NCBI GenBank assembly: GCA_964016885.1
Contig: OZ024754.1
Span: forward strand, 30,194,001-30,258,000
Direction: 5' to 3'
DNA: 64,000 nucleotides
Origin: Eledone cirrhosa
Lineage: Eukaryota
Made by a program: the position numbers and the translations under genes
The notes under the pieces: generated by a model
Told to the model about the DNA's origin: nothing
What the model saw: the letters and a program-made list of their open reading frames with translations, nothing else
Databases searched by the model: none
Part shown: positions 3,022-47,516 of the stretch, piece by piece
Numbering within the stretch: the first letter of the stretch is position 1
Layout of the letters: the number at the start of each line of letters is the position of its first letter

Positions 3022-3811
3022 ATGTGTATATGTGTGTGTGTATATATATTTATATATATACCCATGTGGAGGTATGAGTACATATTCGTGTGTGTACGTA
3101 TGTGTATGTGTGTTTTTATATGTGTCTCTATATGTTTTTGTGTATGTATTTGTACATGGGTGTGTGATTGATGGTGTGTGCCTATATATTCCTACATATG
3201 TCCGTGTGTGTATGTACATATATGCGCACATATGTGTGTGTTGAACAAAGGACTAACTTTGGGATGGACGTAGAAAAATTCTTCAGGAAAAAAAGAAAAA
3301 AATAATTATTCACAAACTTGACAGGTGCGATTTGCCTGTGACCATTCTCAACACAAAAGCAATGCTAAAAGCTTTTTCCCCTGAATAAAGGAATTTTTCG
3401 AGAATGACCGGGGCAGGCCGCACTTGCTACATTTCTCCCCACCCAACCCTACTCACCGTCTCAACTCATTACTGCTATGAACACTTTTTCAACACACTTA
3501 CACCCATGCACTTATTAAAGGGGGAGAAAAGAAACCCCCACCACACCACAGACATGTTAAATCCCTATATATAGAACAACACACCACATACACATCAGTT
3601 TGACAAGCGCACCTCAGCGTGAAAGATCTTTCTAAAAACGAAACAATACCTCCTACGTTAACCAAGAACTCCTAAGACCTAACCAACAACCAACAACTTA
3701 ATTTATAAAATAATTTTTTTTTAAGAAAAATTCTTTTTGGATTTTGTGAAGAAAATAAATTTGTTGAAAGCACAAGTGAAGCCATTTTTTCTTCCCCCCT
3801 GTCTTAATATA
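2722..3811. repeat. ~175-bp near-perfect inverted repeats (2722-2898 / 3636-3811)
   Basis: Arms are visible reverse complements. The ORF track shows [31 protein letters not shown] on both strands. Confidence 0.92.
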
Positions 3812-11499: not shown

Positions 11500-12868
11500 A
11501 TCGATTCTTGAGGTGGCCTGGTCGGGAATCGGCCTCCAGGTCAACTCGGCCAAGTCGGAGGTGGTGAATGTCAGCCTCGATGCTGCGAGCTTTGCAGCCT
11601 CCGTCTTGGACGTGCGGTCCATTCTCCGCCAGGTTCAGGTGACCCCCAAAGAGGATGTCCTCATCCTCGGGTCACCGATTCACCCGCCGGCCATCCGCAC
11701 CACCATCAGGTCCAGGCTTCAACAGCTCCAGACTCTCACGAGCTGACTGGGCTTGATTGAAGGCTACCCAGCTCTCTTTCTGCTGAGGAACTGCTTCGCC
11801 ATGCCGAAGCTCCTGTATACACTACGCAGCGCTCCGTGCTACACCCAGACATCTCTCCTCGATGACCTCGATACTTGTATCCGAGCAGCAGCCGAGGAGA
11901 TATGCAGCGTCATTTTTGACGACATAGGGTGGCAACAGGCCATTTTACCTGTTAGGTATGGCGGCCTTGGCCTCCGGTCCCCGATCTCACTAGCTTTGCC
12001 GGCGTATCTTTCGTCGGTAACCTCGTGCTGCGTCCTCGTCAGCAGGGTTCTTCAAAACACAACAGAACCCTCTGTGTTCAGAGAACGTGGGACCGGCTGT
12101 GACTTAGCCCAGTAGACGTCCCTCCTCCTTCTCCCCTTGTTGACGTCAAGTCCCCCCAACGCACTTGGGATGCCATCCAGTGCAGCCTGGCCTCGGACAG
12201 GCTCACGCGCCAGCTCGACCAGCACCACCTTGCTTGTTTTCGTGCGGCCTCCAAACCCCATGGTGGTGCCTAGCTCCATGCCCTGTCCCCCTCCTCCACT
12301 GGCACTAGACAACTATAGCCTGCGCATCGGCGTTTCCCTGAGGCTCGGCCTCCGGATCTGCCAGCCACACCAATGTCGCTGTGGTTCCACCGTGGACTCT
12401 TTCGGCCTCCATCCGCTTTCCTGTCGCCACAGTGCCGGCCGCATTCCACGCCATGCTGCCCTCAACGAGGTCATTAAGCATGGCTTGGACGCTGCAGGCT
12501 TCCCTTCCCAGCTCGAGCCGGTGGGGATGGATCGAGGGGACGGCAAAAGGCCAGATGGCATGACCATCTTGCCGTTCCGCAGTGGCAAACCTCTCGTCTG
12601 GGATGCCACTTGCACCGACACTTTCTGCAGCCACAACCTGGTGCAGTGTGCGACTGACCTAGGTTCTGCTGCACGTCGGGCTGAGGGGGCCAAACTTCTC
12701 AAATACCGGTCGCTCTCCGACAGGTTTGCGGTCGTTCCCCCTGGCAGTGGAGACTTCTGGTGTCCTCGGCCCCAGGGCTACCTCCTTACTCACCACCATA
12801 GGCGCTGAGCTGGCCAGCCGCAGGTGTGAGCCCCACGAGTTGGAATGGCTTTTCCAGCGCGTCTCCCG
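11500..12868 (+). mobile_element. Non-LTR retrotransposon fragment with restriction-like endonuclease, CRE-clade-like, disrupted
   Basis: RT thumb motif WQQAILPVRYGGLGLRS, Zn knuckle CRC...HPLSC, RHAALN, and RPDG...WDAT PD-(D/E)xK nuclease. Has stops and frameshifts. Markedly GC-rich relative to flanks. Confidence 0.88.
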
Positions 12869-12869
12869 A

Positions 12870-13018
12870 AATAAACGAAAGATATAACTTTATAACATCG
12901 CTATTTATTTCATTATATATATTTCGGAAATGCAAAAGTTTATGTTAAACACAATTTTTTGCATCCCCAAAATATATATAATGAAATAAATAGTGATGTT
13001 ATAAAGTTATCGTTTATT
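12870..13018. mobile_element. Palindromic foldback/MITE-like element abutting the CRE LINE fragment
   Basis: ATAACTTTATAACATCGCTATTTATTTCATTATATATATTT pairs with AAATATATATAATGAAATAAATAGTGATGTTATAAAGTTAT. Confidence 0.75.
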
Positions 13019-13191
13019 ACTATTATTATCATAATACTCCAGATAAGTTTTACAGTCGAGTGCTTCGTATCTGTTATGAACATAACTCAGTTGATTACAT
13101 ATCAACGAAGTCTTTAACTCATTATATATATATATAACATAAAACAATATGGCGTAGGACAGGACAAAGGAGAGACACAAAATAAAACCTA

Positions 13192-13234
13192 GTCACTGAA
13201 GAGGTCATAGAAGGTGTGACGAAAGTGCTTTGAC
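13192..13234 (+). ncRNA. Minimal type I hammerhead-like motif
   Basis: GTCA-CTGAAGA-G-GTCAT..GTGAC-GAAA-GTGC-TT-TGAC. 4-bp stem I, 1-nt core insertion, rudimentary stem III. Confidence 0.55.
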
Positions 13235-13292
13235 AATTAATAAACAACCTTCCGGTTATCAAATCAACCAACCAACCGGTAATTTATGATAA

Positions 13293-13371
<79 letters not shown>

Positions 13372-13375
<4 letters not shown>

Positions 13376-13770
13376 ATATAATTGAATATACAAGAGAGAT
13401 AAACACAAATATAAGCATACATGTGTTTGAATTGTAAAAGACCAAGTTCACTAGGGAGAAAAAAAAATACTAACTATAACAATATGGTGGAAGGATTACT
13501 AATTTTTACACCTACTGAAGAGCAGAAAGTTGGTGATTCCTTCGCTTAATAATTTGCGAAACAGCTCCTATAGCTGTCTAGGTGTTTCGGGCAGTTGCCC
13601 AATATAGGTTTGTTCTTCTTTTTCTTGATTTATTACTTTAAATTAAGTCTGGCAAACCATATTGTTATAGTTAGTATTTTGTTCACCCTAGTGAACTTGG
13701 TCTCTTACAATTCGAACACATGTATGTTTATATTTGTGTTTATCTCTCTTGTATATTCAATTATATTACA
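13372..13770. repeat. ~115-bp inverted repeats (13372-13488 / 13656-13770) enclosing the hammerhead
   Basis: TGTAATATAATTGAATATACAAGAGAG...AATATGGT is the reverse complement of ACCATATT...CAATTATATTACA with few mismatches. Confidence 0.9.
13508..13585 (+). ncRNA. Type I hammerhead ribozyme, canonical core
   Basis: Stem I ACACCTA/TAGGTGT, CTGAAGA, stem II GCAGA/TTTGC, GAA, stem III ACAGCT/AGCTGT, GTC triplet. Predicted cleavage after C13578. Confidence 0.85.
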
Positions 13771-13911
13771 CGGCTAAGAAAAACTTCTTTCTTGGAGCTA
13801 TTTAATTGTAAGAGACTATTTTGAGTTTCTAACACAATATCTGGTATATATATGTATATATATACATAAAAAGTTATTGATCTCTGTCCCTGGTTTCCCT
13901 TATATCATGTA

Positions 13912-14740
13912 TACGAGCTGTGTCAGAAAAGAATCAGGCCTGGGGTCGCAAAAAAAAGAATATTTCAAATCAAAAGTACAACCTACAAGTTTTCCTCTTC
14001 GAAATAATTCCCCTCGAGTTTAATGCACTTTCCCATTCTTCTCCGCCACGCCTCCAAACATTCCTGGAAGGTTTCTTCGCAGCTCCATTGTCACGGCCCA
14101 CTTGATGGCTTCAACGTCCGGAAAACGGGTCCCCTTGACTCAGTACCGATGATGTCACTCCCCAACAAGTCAGGTTCGGTTTCGAGACGCCCGAAGATGA
14201 CCTGACACACCTGCATGTACTTCTCCTTGTGGACATCGTTCAGCACCTTCGACACCATCTTCGCGCAGATCTTCTACATGCTCAAATCTTCGGCGATAAT
14301 CTTCCTAATGCTGTCGTGGTTCACGCCCGGCTTACTTGCGATCAGTCGAACAGTCAGCCGACGATCACAATGCACCACCTACCTGACGCGCTCAACACTG
14401 GCTTCCGTCCTGCTCGTTGAAGGCCTTCCGCTCCTGAGGTCGTCTTCCACATCCTCGCGTCCCTCTTTGAACCTTGTGTGCCACTCGAAAACCCGTGAAC
14501 ATGACATCGTCTCATCTCCGTGCACTTGCTGTAGTATTCCGAGTGCTTCTGACGGAGTTTTCCCCAGTCGGACCAGAAACTTCAGGCTGGTTCGTTGTTC
14601 TGTACTCGTCGTTCGACGGCCTAAAATTGAGGAATTGTTTACAAAAGCACTTGAAGAAACATACAATGGCTGCAGAGAGTTGAGATCGCAGTTATATGCT
14701 CCTCGGATATTATGTCACACGATGACGCAACCCGCTAATC
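13912..14740 (-). mobile_element. Mariner transposon remnant, internally deleted
   Basis: EQRTSLKFLVRLGKTPSEALGILQQVHGDETMSCSRVFEWHTRFKEGREDVEDDLRSGRPSTS (mariner HTH and GRP linker). TA-CGAG... TIR-like end at 13912. Confidence 0.85.
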
Positions 14741-25336: not shown

Positions 25337-25759
25337 TTACAACATGGTACAGGCTCCTTTCTTCTTCTTCTTTACTTGAAGGGCTGCCCGAGTAGCTGTT
25401 TCAAACACTTCTCTCACGCCATCTTTGGTCTTAGCAGAACATTCTAAATAACTATAGGCATTGATCTTCTCCGCCATGGCACGACCATCTTCAGGTCGGA
25501 CTGGTTCCTGCTTCATCTTCATAAGTTCTCTCTTTGTATTTTCATCATTTCGTAGATCTTTCTTATTGCCAACCAAAATGATAGGAACGTTGGGACAGAA
25601 ATGTTTCACTTCGGGGGTCCACTTCTCGGGTATATTTTCCAAACTGTCTGGACTATCAATAGAAAAGCACATAAGAATCACATCTGTGTCAGGGTAAGAC
25701 AAAGGTCGTAACCTATCATAATCTTCCTGTCCAGCAGTATCCCAGAGAGCCAATTCAAC
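25337..25759 (-). CDS. RhoA: RhoA distal alternative terminal exon (aa 53-192, ends [11 protein letters not shown])
   Basis: Acceptor TTTTTCTTTTCTCTAG|GTT in phase 0. Same 423-nt length as the proximal exon, with intact motifs and CaaX. Sequence recalls Aplysia rho ([31 protein letters not shown]). Confidence 0.95.
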
Positions 25760-27480
25760 CTAGAGAAAAGAAAAATACAAATTAATTATTTCGAAAATAA
25801 ATTGATAAAATTATTATAGAAATATTGAACAAATTTGAAATCTATTTACTTTTCTTATGAAAAGCTGCTACAATGATTACATTATACAAATTAAACAATC
25901 AAATAAATTGAGTAAATTATCCTTGATTGCAACAGTCATACAACAGATGCAAGGTTCAATTCTTGCAGGTCACTGGCCACATTTTTACCAACTTCAAGGG
26001 TAATTTACCCGATTTATTCAACTATTTTATCGTTCATATATGTATTATGGCAGCTTTTCATATGAAAAGCAAATAGATTTCAAATTTTTTAAATAGATAT
26101 TGGGGGGGGGGGGGGCTATGTTACAATATAAAATGTTAAAGGTCTCAGTTACATAAAACAGCTTCTGAGGATTTACTTGTAATCTTTTTCTTTCAAAAAA
26201 AAAATAAATAAATAAATAAAAAAAAAAAGGAAAAAGAAAATCGGTTGAGGGAACAAAAAAGATCAACCTTTTCTTTCCATACGTAACCGTCCCTGGTTCC
26301 ACAATATTAAGCTGTTTATAATTATCTAAAACCATTCCATCACAATCCCATGTAAGAACCTTTAAGTTATCCAAATACCAACTAGTTTATTGAGAAAGTA
26401 ATAATTGTTTCTACTTTAGGCACAAGGCCAGCAATTACTGGTACTTTATTTTATCGACCCCATAAGGATGAAAGTAATAATAAACTTGTCCAAGATGTGG
26501 ATTATTTTCAAAATCATTTGAAAATTTATAAACTGTTTTTCATTAGCAATATGAAAAATGAAATGCTTAAAATGTTATACAAGGTCTCTAGCATTAAGTT
26601 TCCACTAATGTTACAATGCATTTTATTTTACATTTATTTTAAAATTCCTTAATACATCTGATACCTAACTGGTTGGAATCACCCCTGGTTAGTTCTAAAA
26701 TACTAAGCTGTTTGCATACATGAATCGAGTTTCAAGGAAGTTTTTAAATGCCTTGTGACAATATAATTTTAAATGATGAGAAGCCCAAACAATGCACTCA
26801 AGGAATGAAACAAGTGTTTTATTCAAAGCTTTGTCTTAAAAGATCCATACCAGTGAATTGCTATAAGATCTTAGAGTGGTTAACTGATGAAGGCCTTTTA
26901 AGACAAAGTTTTGAATAAAACAAGTTTTACTTTATATGCATTTAAGTGTTTATATTTATATAAAAACATTGAGTTATGTTCCAAACATCAGTTTCGCAAA
27001 AGTTATATTACTAATTTCCATCAAATTATAAAGTGATTTGAAAACTATCAGCAGTCTTTCAATAGATTTAAGAGAAGGGTTAAGCCAACATGGTGAATAA
27101 GTTGGTTCTTTCCCAACTTTATTTCCTAATCTAACCTTGAGACTAAAATAAAATTCAAGTCAGTTGATGTTTTATATTATAAACAAGTGTAAAGTTAGTA
27201 ACAAGAAAGTATAATTTAGTATCAGATTTAGTGGTCTAGTAGTATTACCCTTCGTTCACAAATGAAAGGTACCTAATTGAAGCCCAGTTGGGGATCATGT
27301 ACACACCCAACCATATGAAACATCAGAGTTGGAGATCAAATTGACTGGAAATATCAAAATGTAGTGCTTGGTGCTAGGAAGGGCTTCCAACCATAGAAAT
27401 GTCACAAGTGGACAAAGGTCTCATCAGATATACAATCCCCCTGGTGCTGATGCCATGATCAAATGCACACAAAACACAAT

Positions 27481-32439: not shown

Positions 32440-32862
32440 TCAAAATAAGATACATCTTCCTCGTTTCTTCTTTTTCACTTGTAAAGCTGCTTTAGTTGCC
32501 GTTTCAAACACCTCTCTAACCCCCTCTTTAGTCTTCGCTGAACATTCTAAATATGAGAAAGCACCAATTTTTTCAGACATTGCTTTGCCATCATCAGCTT
32601 TGACCGGTTCCTGTTTCATCTTAGCCAATTCCCGTCTTGTAGTATCATCGTTGCGCAGATCTTTCTTGTTTCCGACTAAAATAATGGGAACATTGGGACA
32701 AAAATGCTTCACTTCTGGTGTCCACTTCTCTGGAATATTCTCTAAGCTGTCAGGACTATCAATAGAGAAACACATTAATATAACATCTGTATCGGGGTAG
32801 GAGAGAGGTCGTAATCTATCATAATCTTCTTGACCTGCAGTATCCCATAAAGCCAATTCCAC
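32440..32862 (-). CDS. RhoA: RhoA proximal alternative terminal exon (aa 53-192, ends [11 protein letters not shown])
   Basis: Acceptor (T)n AATTTCAG|GTG in phase 0. Open frame [19 protein letters not shown]...GNKKD...ECSAK...CILF-stop with intact G3/G4/G5 motifs and CaaX box. Confidence 0.95.
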
Positions 32863-33128
32863 CTGAAATTAAAAAAAAAAAAATAAATAAATAAATAAAG
32901 TTTATTTTATTTTTCAAAATACAGGCATTAAAATTTCACAATACTTTGTTAGTTAATAGCAAAACATTGAAAACATGTTAGTTAACAAATCCAGTGCCAC
33001 ACTGATACGTAATTTTATAAATATTGAGATTTCATCAATAAGCATCTATTTAAGATCAGCTTTACTATATTGCAGGCAAAGTTAAAGCAGTAAAAGAATT
33101 TAATAAACTGATAACTTATTGACAATTG

Positions 33129-43908: not shown

Positions 43909-44136
<228 letters not shown>

Positions 44137-45452: not shown

Positions 45453-47516
45453 AGAATCCGGAAGGATTTAGTAAAATAAATTTTTCGATAGATTGGTGTT
45501 TGAGATATGTAACGAAATGAGGTTTATGGCAGTTTGGTATCTTATCGATAAAATTCATAACTTTGGCAGCATTCTAAATATATATTTTGACTAAGATTTT
45601 CCTTTACCTTGACTAAGGCCAGTTTGGGATAATTTTAAAATTATAACTACTTCAAATAAGTTGAAATCTAAGGAAGGTCAACCCCAGAGAAATGACCTCA
45701 AGAATGAGTCATTGAATTGTGACAGTCATAGTATATATCTATATATATCTATATCTATATCTATATCTATATCTATATCGATATATATAGATATATATAG
45801 ATATATATAGATATATATAGATATATATAGATATATCTATATATATCTATATATATCTCTATATATATATCTAAGAATGGAATAGCATCACTCAAAACAA
45901 TATTACTAAAATATCTGCCATTTTGAAAATAATATCAAATTAAATCTTAGCAAAGTATTTTTAACCCTTTAGTATTTACATTACTCTATATTTACTATTA
46001 TATTTTCACAGTAAAGGCTTTACCTCGCATAATATCGAATCTATGAGATTCGTATTTATTTTCAGAACAATACCTTAACATCAGTATGAGCGACCAGTTA
46101 CAGCCAGTTTGAACAGCGAGAGAATTTTGGCCACAGAACTTAAGATTTTATCCCAGTCAGTTTGTGGTTGATTTTGTTTGGCTTAGTGGTTAGAGCATTG
46201 GCCTTGCAATCGAAAGGTTGTGAGTTCAATTCTCAGACCGAGTGATGTGTTGTTTCCTTGAGCAAGACACTATTTCACATTGCTCCGGTTTACTCAGCTG
46301 TAGAAATGAGATGATAGGGACTGGGGTCCATATACCACTGCAAAGTGGTCGTGGAGGTGCCACGGCAAAAAAAAAAAAAAAAAAAAAAAAAAGCACCCAG
46401 CACTCACTGTCAATGTTGGTGTTAGGAAGGGCATCCAGCTGTAGAAATCAAGCCAGAATCAGTTCCCGTTCCACCCTTTCAAGCAGGGAAAAGCGGACGT
46501 AAAATGAAATGATGATGATGAACCCTTTTAACATCCAACAGCATTACAAAATTGTTTTAAAGCATTTATAATTTATCTATAATTTCACTTAATCATTATG
46601 TTCTTAAAACACCAACATGACAAATTTATTAAATATCTCCAAATTCTTGATTATTTTCAAATCATATTCAGTGTATATTTAGAAATATGGGAATAATACA
46701 GTAAATGGAATTTTTTCAACTCCTATTACAAATAAAGTGAAAACTATTCAAAAGGAAACATTTTTAAGAATCGAAAGTTATGCAAAGCAGAAAGGATTTG
46801 TCGCTTGTGACAAAGAAAAAGTCGTGCACATTAAAATATATTCTGTCGTATAAGTCGCATCACCATAGTGGCTAAATTCCGTATAAAGTTACACCGCTAA
46901 CTACGACTTGGATACGGTTTATACTACAACACAAATCCTATACACTGGTGTATAAGTCGCGCCACCATTGTAGCTATAATATTCTTAGCCCTGGACTTGA
47001 CTTGAATATTATGTAGGTTTAGCATATAAGCAGCATGCTGTTTTTTTTACGTAGTATTTCCTGTGTGACATATACGGATAATTAAAACATTTACATGGAA
47101 ACAATTCAAACAAGGTTTTGTTTTAAACTAAGCGAGGCTTCATTTTTTTAATATAATTTTAATGGTCTTTGTTTCTCGATAAGGAGGAATTTGCCAGTCT
47201 TTGTTCTCCAAGAAATATAATAGAGAGTGTATGTGTTGTGTATAACTTCATTTTTTTTAAATATATCTAGATAAATATGAACATTCAGTTATCCTGTGTT
47301 ATTGTGCATATGTGTAGGAATGTGTGACTGCAATGTATGTAGATTGAGAAAATAGTAAAAATTCTCTCATGACAAACAATGGAGAGTGAGAGACTGATCA
47401 ACAAGTACAGCAACCAACACTAAGACAACTACCAAGATATTAATGAAGTCTGGGGTAAAACCGAGTGCTATTACAGTAAAAGGGATAAATTATTCACTAT
47501 CAATATGTTGCTATAT

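Follow-up and report, generated by a model that had tools for sequence, protein, structure and literature searches.

A type I hammerhead with a candidate leader helix in a foldback insertion, probably of Penelope-like origin, from an octopus-like genome

Introduction

Penelope-like elements (PLEs) leave insertions of a recognizable form, in which an inverted, 5'-truncated copy stands at the 5' end and a tail of 30-40 bp is present at one end only, and several PLE clades are biased towards (TA)n targets (PMC8557442); the same form, together with palindromes at the 5' ends of the pseudo-LTRs, was described in PMC3846280. In vitro, both target strands are cut and extended by a PLE, and the tail corresponds to the stretch between two internal start sites of reverse transcription (PMC11167929). 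In Octopus vulgaris, PLEs account for 6.83% of the genome and comprise 190 families (PMC13282606 supplement). Helix III of the metazoan PLE hammerheads is minimal, or short and palindromic, large versions being confined to fungi and protists (PMC4209133), and the Naiads were published as being without canonical hammerheads, their ends carrying the label HHR_half_core (PMC8557442 Files S1 and S5). Naiads are characterized by an N-terminal GIY-YIG domain, a CxC linker and a C-terminal RT.

For about 40% of hammerheads a helix that connects stems I and II is predicted, and such helices accelerate cleavage (PMC3088659); breaking such a helix stops a permuted ribozyme (PMC10085705), and one of the permuted orders, type-CSG, was reported from two metagenome sequences (PMC10085705). 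The sequence analyzed was a 64-kb stretch of animal DNA rich in repeats (hereafter, the window), in which a first-pass annotation had proposed a self-cleaving element of about 400 bp bounded by a foldback.

Results

Genomic setting

The host is octopus-like: an Octopus bimaculoides protein matched a Rho GTPase exon at 32443-32868 (minus strand) with 99% identity, the 119 further listed matches to this exon not exceeding 92%. Rho GTPase exons were located on the minus strand at 25340-25759, 32443-32868 and 43909-44136; the second exon is present twice in the window (77% DNA identity), which points to exon duplication or to mutually exclusive use.

The hammerhead insertion is flanked by the decayed 3' part of a retroelement-like ORF (11747-12867) and by a mariner remnant. 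The ORF, frameshifted along 11501-12867 (plus strand), had 117 homologues with identities of up to 70%, which were mostly unnamed, none bearing a useful name, and gave no Pfam matches; it may be CRE-like, with a restriction-type endonuclease. The mariner remnant is a decayed transposase at 13990-14714 (minus strand), with an HTH_48 domain at 14382-14714 (E = 1.6e-05). Immediately 3' of the upstream retroelement ORF lies a palindrome (12884-13010) whose 63-bp arms (89%) are separated by 1 nt and which may represent a MITE or a further hairpin stub; matches of microRNA families to 12883-13012 were rejected, being below the Rfam gathering score and caused by the DNA palindrome.

Other repeats were observed farther away. 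An inverted repeat at 26815-26922 (78%) may be a PLE stub cut off within its own hammerhead: its spacer terminates with a CUGAUGA box (about 26884), for which no GAAA partner was found. The 177-bp inverted pair 2722-2898 and 3636-3811 (99.4% identical), which adjoins (TA)n tracts and encloses unrelated sequence, is a young inverted structure. A tRNA-like head at 46172-46244 (plus strand; 31.7 bits, marginally above the Rfam threshold) and its adjoining repeat, which occurs several times in the window, are probably a SINE.

The hammerhead at 13508-13585

A complete type I hammerhead was found on the plus strand at 13508-13585, with every stem and box in the place that the first-pass annotation had given it. 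Stem I, the open one, pairs 13508-13514 with 13579-13585 (7/7 Watson-Crick pairs); the core CUGAAGA occupies 13515-13521; stem II (13522-13526 with 13553-13557) has four Watson-Crick pairs, one G-U pair and a 26-nt loop; the GAAA box lies at 13558-13561; and stem III (13561-13566 with 13572-13577; 6/6 pairs) is a closed hairpin with a 5-nt loop, followed by a GUC site with a predicted cut after C13578. All of the core positions (C3-A9, G12-A15, U16 and H17) were present, together with the three stems. As modelled, a closed 6-bp stem III means that the ribozyme should not need a dimer, in agreement with the monomer-capable form proposed earlier.

The 96-nt piece 13500-13595 was predicted to fold as a hammerhead (stem probabilities 0.94, 0.90 and 0.95); its fold energy was unremarkable (z = -1.14; 24/200 shuffles as good), and that of a 131-nt piece was better than in all 200 shuffles. 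Strict hammerheads with these stem lengths occurred in none of 1,500 locally resampled 64-kb windows, against one in the real window, the stem-length thresholds having been taken from the observed motifs themselves. A type I motif descriptor run over the window yielded two matches, 13508-13585 and a minimal motif at 13192-13234. One candidate of permuted, type II order at 3286 (minus strand), spread over 165 nt of AT-rich sequence, was taken as chance. The Rfam check recommended with the first-pass annotation came out negative: the hammerhead models had no match in the window at gathering score, and none of the 22 matches obtained at E up to 10 for the region of the motif (12800-14000) was to a hammerhead. 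A possible cause is the long loop II.

A comparison set of 82 animal PLE type I hammerheads was assembled from PMC4209133 Fig. S3 (n = 56) and the Hydra-clade rows of PMC8557442 File S2 (n = 26). The ribozyme shares with these rows the type I order, intact CUGAnGA and GAAA boxes and the G-C pair that closes stem II, and its stem III starts and ends like those of several Hydra-clade motifs. In contrast, stem III has 6 bp and a non-palindromic 5-nt loop here, whereas in the 82 rows of these supplements it does not exceed 4 bp and the loops are short and mostly palindromic; loop II has 26 nt here and at most 10 nt there; and only the present motif has a 16-bp leader helix, named P0 (see below), and no unpaired base after the core. 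The Hydra-1_oBim hammerhead row (PMC8557442 File S2) did not match by eye, and neither did the element resemble by eye the 3' ends of Naiad_Obim, Ovul, Omin and Esco. Motif searches of the PMC8557442 supplement yielded no element match and were weak, as the positive control was missed too. No sequence match to a published PLE consensus was found by eye, in keeping with the earlier suggestion that the family does not correspond to a described one. A description of a cephalopod hammerhead of this form was not found in the literature searched, whose scope left out most subscription papers as well as Repbase and Dfam.

Architecture and extent of the insertion

The hammerhead lies, as annotated, in the 167-nt spacer of a long foldback with arms at 13372-13488 and 13656-13770 (110/117 columns identical, 94%), which differ by five substitutions and one 2-nt gap. 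The inverted repeat is a property of this one insertion and not of the family ends, given that other copies invert elsewhere and that the family sequence continues for 75 bp past the right arm only; the reading of the foldback as the boundary of a 400-bp element was therefore abandoned. The true extent of the insertion is 13372-13845. It begins with the left arm (13372-13488, minus strand), a tailless, inverted and 5'-truncated copy of 13656-13770 that abuts a (TA)n tract (13293-13371), the presumed insertion target, which is shared with an upstream stub. There follows a 357-bp sense copy of the 3' end of the repeat (13489-13845, plus strand), composed of ribozyme, spacer, right arm and tail; the right arm (13656-13770, plus strand) ends at a putative proximal priming site at about 13766-13770, and the one-sided 75-bp tail (13771-13845, plus strand), which has no counterpart on the left, ends at a putative distal priming site. 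A short (TA)n tract with one G (13845-13864) closes the insertion on the right, so that the adjoining (TA)n run noted earlier is real but not one-sided. A similar interrupted (TA)n was found at 13295-13314, and from their sequence the two tracts are possibly a slipped target duplication. The exact 3' end is blurred, 13840-13874 having been skipped as a repeat in read mapping. The right-side (TA)n, the 75-bp tail, the P0 leader helix and the hammerhead at 13192-13234 were all absent from the first-pass annotation.

The five substitutions between the arms correspond to about 2% per arm, or roughly 6 million years under the calibration quoted in PMC13282606, and the copy is probably dead at its own locus. 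No tandem copy of the element was found in the window, the tail showed no ORF start (the arm end lacks an ATG, and each of the three frames has stops), and none of the 148 open frames scanned, from 234 listed in the window, matched an RT or GIY-YIG family.

The element was inserted in the (TA)n tract at the 3' end of a separate short stub of 155 bp (13138-13292, plus strand), which lies between two (TA)n tracts that served to place its bounds and ends in a small AC-rich hairpin. The stub contains the minimal hammerhead 13192-13234 (core at 13196), with a 4-bp stem I, a 6-bp stem II, a near-palindromic stem III of 2 bp and an unpaired base after the core; it had no Rfam match, and motifs of such minimal stem lengths occurred 13 times in the 1,500 resampled windows. 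The stub is likely another PLE family.

The repeat family in reads and contigs

Sequences with 80% likeness to a reference (13455-13960) were recovered from two contig sets of one sample of organism A, possibly the source of the window (X1, 1,936 contigs; X2, 1,934 contigs), from RAD raw reads of another sample of organism A (X5, 2,247 reads), and from contigs of organism B (X4), where the six contigs were too few for covariation. The whole stretch 13489-13845 stood at repeat-level depth in X1, X2 and X5, which, together with the PLE-type architecture, bears out the earlier view of a repeated, retroelement-like sequence in the Penelope orbit.

Depth was flat (370-883) over 13489-13573 in X1 and X2. 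Summed depth in X1 was 370-586 over the ribozyme and then rose through 1,337, 3,608 and 15,224 to as much as 76,669 before the arm end, falling after 13760 from 76,669 to 35,266; it peaked at 190,045 in the tail (13812-13828; up to 220,712 in the X2 tail) and past 13863, where the loose ends indicate other repeats, it was 386-1,866. Summed depth cannot be read as a number of copies, and its peaks arise in part from segments that diverged subfamilies have retained. The deepest segment of the family, 13795-13828, sits in the tail and is 2.5 times deeper than the arm end; it may be a conserved cis-signal that diverged subfamilies share, or may reflect very short insertions.

Reference-like sequence was read in the loose ends at 13619, 13666, 13704 and 13786, in line with diverged subfamilies. 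X1 and X2 (a single sample) each had 17 contigs whose loose ends behind 13766 read (AT)n, and the left arm likewise meets (TA)n, at the position matching 13770. Five of the 11 listed joints switch strand at other points within the element, two of them shared by X1 and X2 (13586-13680 and 13694-13778), two seen in X1 (13669-13750 and 13719-13807) and one in X2 (13728-13771). Four joints at 13457-13462 were dropped as artefacts of the left-arm piece in the reference, and the remaining two were skips (13486-13710 and 13740-13812). A go-back joint from the 3' end to the start was not present among the 11 listed, although units longer than the reference, which has no family sequence upstream of 13489, would escape this count. 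Pile-ups of X5 read ends at 13551, 13641, 13759 and 13762 all fell on AATT sites and were discarded as restriction ends of the RAD library; these sites also lowered the X5 depth over the ribozyme.

A pattern scan of metagenome contigs with two core-flanking pieces returned three matches, all of them due to chance. One fell in a LINE-type RT frame and the other two in copies of a single unrelated gene, so that all were coding, and BLAST showed no likeness between them and 12801-14000. A 21-mer of the tail had one match in genome contigs, with no likeness outside the 21-mer, and none in viral contigs.

Variation of the ribozyme was read from 40 of 136 variant rows, among which three positions of the ribozyme varied, 13519, 13565 and 13573. 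The sole core change listed, at 13519 (10/12 X5 reads), falls on the free N7 position, and the other two positions are the partners of one stem III pair, changed respectively in 19/31 and 22/31 X5 reads, in 7 and 12 contigs of X1, and in 8 and 10 contigs of X2. At least 10 X5 reads carry U-A for C-G at this pair if the same reads span both positions (the data being unphased). The change at 13573 is the commoner (73% of depth in X1, versus 45% for 13565), so that some copies carry a mismatch. No variants within P0 were present among the 40 rows. One of the six organism B contigs begins at 13579, the first base past the predicted cut, and 13586 is the site of an inversion joint; both are no more than hints.

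Leader helix P0

The leader strand 13490-13505 can pair with 13527-13543 in loop II (both on the plus strand) to form a helix, P0, of 16 bp with one bulge, in which all three non-Watson-Crick pairs are G-U. The duplex energy (-16.9 kcal/mol) was equalled by one of 20,000 shuffles and by none of 2,885 nearby windows; in the palindrome-rich window as a whole, 77 of 15,581 positions of the same geometry were as good. Leader depth was about 60% of ribozyme depth in X1 and X2, indicating that the leader is present in other copies too, and the sense copy begins where P0 has its outer end. A further helix, lying outside the ribozyme (13490-13496 with 13612-13618), competes with P0 and was not treated as a family trait, since 3-nt deletions at 13615-13616 remove its bases in many copies.

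When the leader was included, nested folding of 13489-13595 gave stems I and II a probability of 0.00, and of 13489-13655 probabilities of 0.48 and 0.46. The best nested fold of 13489-13595 (-27.8 kcal/mol) is without stems I and II, and the best nested hammerhead fold reached -23.3 kcal/mol. In a rough sum, the pseudoknotted form that combines P0 with the hammerhead came out ahead by 8.4 kcal/mol before any pseudoknot penalty. Such penalties are about as large, so energy does not decide. As a pseudoknot, P0 would begin exactly where stems I and II stop, and the 9-nt linker 13544-13552 is, by our own estimate, about long enough to span it. The piece 13500-13595, named earlier for an in vitro cleavage test, is without most of the leader strand and cuts P0 in half, so that its transcript is not representative of the natural fold.

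On these models, we lean slightly towards P0 as a pseudoknot clamp, which would form first during transcription, would then hold stems I and II side by side, and would replace the usual loop-loop contact of hammerheads. A role as an off-state element is possible but clearly less likely, and a palindrome made by chance or at the junction is improbable. A Watson-Crick helix between the sides of stems I and II likewise characterizes the helix-joined hammerheads of PMC3088659 and the type-SGC and type-CSG forms of PMC10085705, with 5-6 bp in the tested examples that PMC3088659 presents, versus 16 bp predicted here; the present motif differs from them in its ordinary type I order and in belonging to an animal retroelement.

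Naiad 3' ends and permuted hammerheads

The core boxes are 36 nt apart, within the 35-50-nt range of the Naiad HHR_half_core motifs and beyond both the 7-17-nt descriptor of PMC8557442 and the Rfam models, so that motifs of this kind are missed. This spacing prompted an inspection by eye of 11 Naiad 3' ends from among the 54 (one of them, Hcon, identified by file order). Five of the 11, Naiad_Parc, Naiad-3_Nbra, Naiad_Hcon, Naiad_Hpol and Naiad_Smim (PMC8557442 File S5), could be read by eye as complete type-CSG hammerheads, in which the core is followed by the cleavage block and then by GAAA. On this reading their stems measure 4-6 bp (stem I), 4-5 bp (stem II) and 6-12 bp (stem III), and a P0-like helix of 9-16 bp occupies the position that P0 has in the present element. 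In the 3_Dst end only the P0-like helix around the core was seen by eye, the Obim and Ovul ends hint at a type-SGC arrangement whose stem II is weak, and nothing clear was seen in Esco, Omin and Mmer.

By eye, the Naiad ends share with the element a helix of 9-16 bp that runs from the stem I leader to just after the stem II strand, and (TA)n targets in cephalopods are common to both. The five Naiads differ in being permuted, with the cleavage block in loop II, whereas the element has the type I order and a closed stem III. No paper linking Naiads to permuted hammerheads was found in the literature searched.

Discussion

The ribozyme design is uncommon, whereas the type of insertion is already known. 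We consider 13372-13845 to be, with fair probability, the truncated 3' (pseudo-LTR) end of a longer endonuclease-bearing PLE. With published elements of this kind it shares the head-to-head inverted and truncated copy, the one-sided tail, the (TA)n target, a hammerhead placed some hundreds of bases before the 3' end, and the variable truncation. The inverted 5'-truncated copy has a variable junction, and (TA)n stands on both flanks, as for Neptune, Hydra and Naiad targets. By analogy with the in vitro PLE system, a GIY-YIG endonuclease would have nicked the (TA)n tract on both strands, and the element RNA would have been reverse transcribed from two start points separated by 75 nt. Synthesis from the distal one (13845) would have yielded a 357-nt cDNA ending at 13489, where the ribozyme domain has its outer limit, and synthesis from the proximal one (about 13770) a 117-nt cDNA. 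The head-to-head joining of the two cDNAs would have produced a foldback that has a one-sided tail and carries the hammerhead in its loop. A firm assignment is opposed by the 75-bp tail, which is twice the described length of 30-40 bp and deeper than the arm, unlike what a simple optional tail would predict, and by the lack of any RT or GIY-YIG match among the 148 open frames scanned. The hammerhead is part of the parent RNA.

One alternative concerns the ribozyme only and overlaps the explanations of the parent element. Within a PLE-type insertion the hammerhead may be silent, P0 and competing pairings holding a non-ribozyme fold unless a protein remodels it, as the best nested fold of 13489-13595, without stems I and II, would predict; the hammerhead of the anole Poseidon element cleaves only with protein, and is dispensable for insertion in vitro (PMC11167929). 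However, nested folding is unable to score a pseudoknot, for which the 9-nt linker appears just sufficient, and a P0-like helix of unrelated sequence stands beside intact stems in the five Naiad consensi read by eye. We regard a silent hammerhead as possible, but on the unlikely side.

Doubtful, to a similar or slightly greater degree, is a parent that was not a longer PLE but a short non-coding RNA of at least about 360 nt, retrozyme- or SINE-like and using PLE proteins. The sense copy would then be complete, with 13489 as the natural 5' end; the insertion mechanism would be identical, and only the parent would differ. This is the first-pass proposal with its ends redrawn. The flat depth from 13489 to 13573 in X1 and X2, the start of the copy exactly at the outer end of P0 and the 148 scanned open frames without an RT or GIY-YIG match all fit such an RNA, and animal retrozymes are hammerhead repeats of 170-400 nt (PMC7229834) that have been argued to derive from PLE pseudo-LTRs (bioRxiv 10.64898/2026.07.22.740005). 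With the non-LTR retrozymes of these two sources the element has in common a non-coding, AT-rich sequence on the 350-400-nt scale, a type I hammerhead, a mollusc host and a probable PLE link. Retrozymes are defined, however, as tandem repeats with a hammerhead in each unit; the window holds a single copy with an inversion and a tail rather than a tandem array, the 11 listed joints include no go-back joint, and the strong 3' depth gradient and the many inversion points fit truncation of a longer template.

A MITE that had 117-bp terminal repeats, used a TA target and captured a hammerhead would account for the long inverted arms, the TA context and the mariner remnant 220 bp away, and MITEs are active in O. 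vulgaris (PMC13282606); but fixed inverted repeats marking both ends were not found, the family sequence running 75 bp past one arm, other copies inverting elsewhere and depth being strongly 3'-biased, so that this very improbable reading is already largely refuted by the read mapping. A chance hammerhead-like string in repeat DNA, which the missing Rfam match and the ordinary energy of the 96-nt fold might suggest, is scarcely credible given its absence from 1,500 resampled windows, the variation at N7 and on both sides of one stem III pair, and the location near the 3' end of a PLE-type insertion.

Under the favoured PLE reading, the insertion is ordinary PLE debris and is not to be counted as a new 400-bp element. 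Its interest lies in the ribozyme: most animal PLE hammerheads are crippled as monomers and hard to assay, whereas the predicted closed stem III and long leader helix offer a construct that should cleave alone. It is possible, though less likely than not, that this abundant octopus PLE-type family carries a self-sufficient type I hammerhead clamped by P0, and that the clamp is common to a hidden set of PLEs that includes the candidate type-CSG Naiads. The type-CSG hammerheads of Naiads, if confirmed, would correct a published defining trait of the clade. If this wider reading is true, animal retroelements would be the main natural home of type-CSG, and one lineage of elements would connect the type I and the permuted forms through the same helix.
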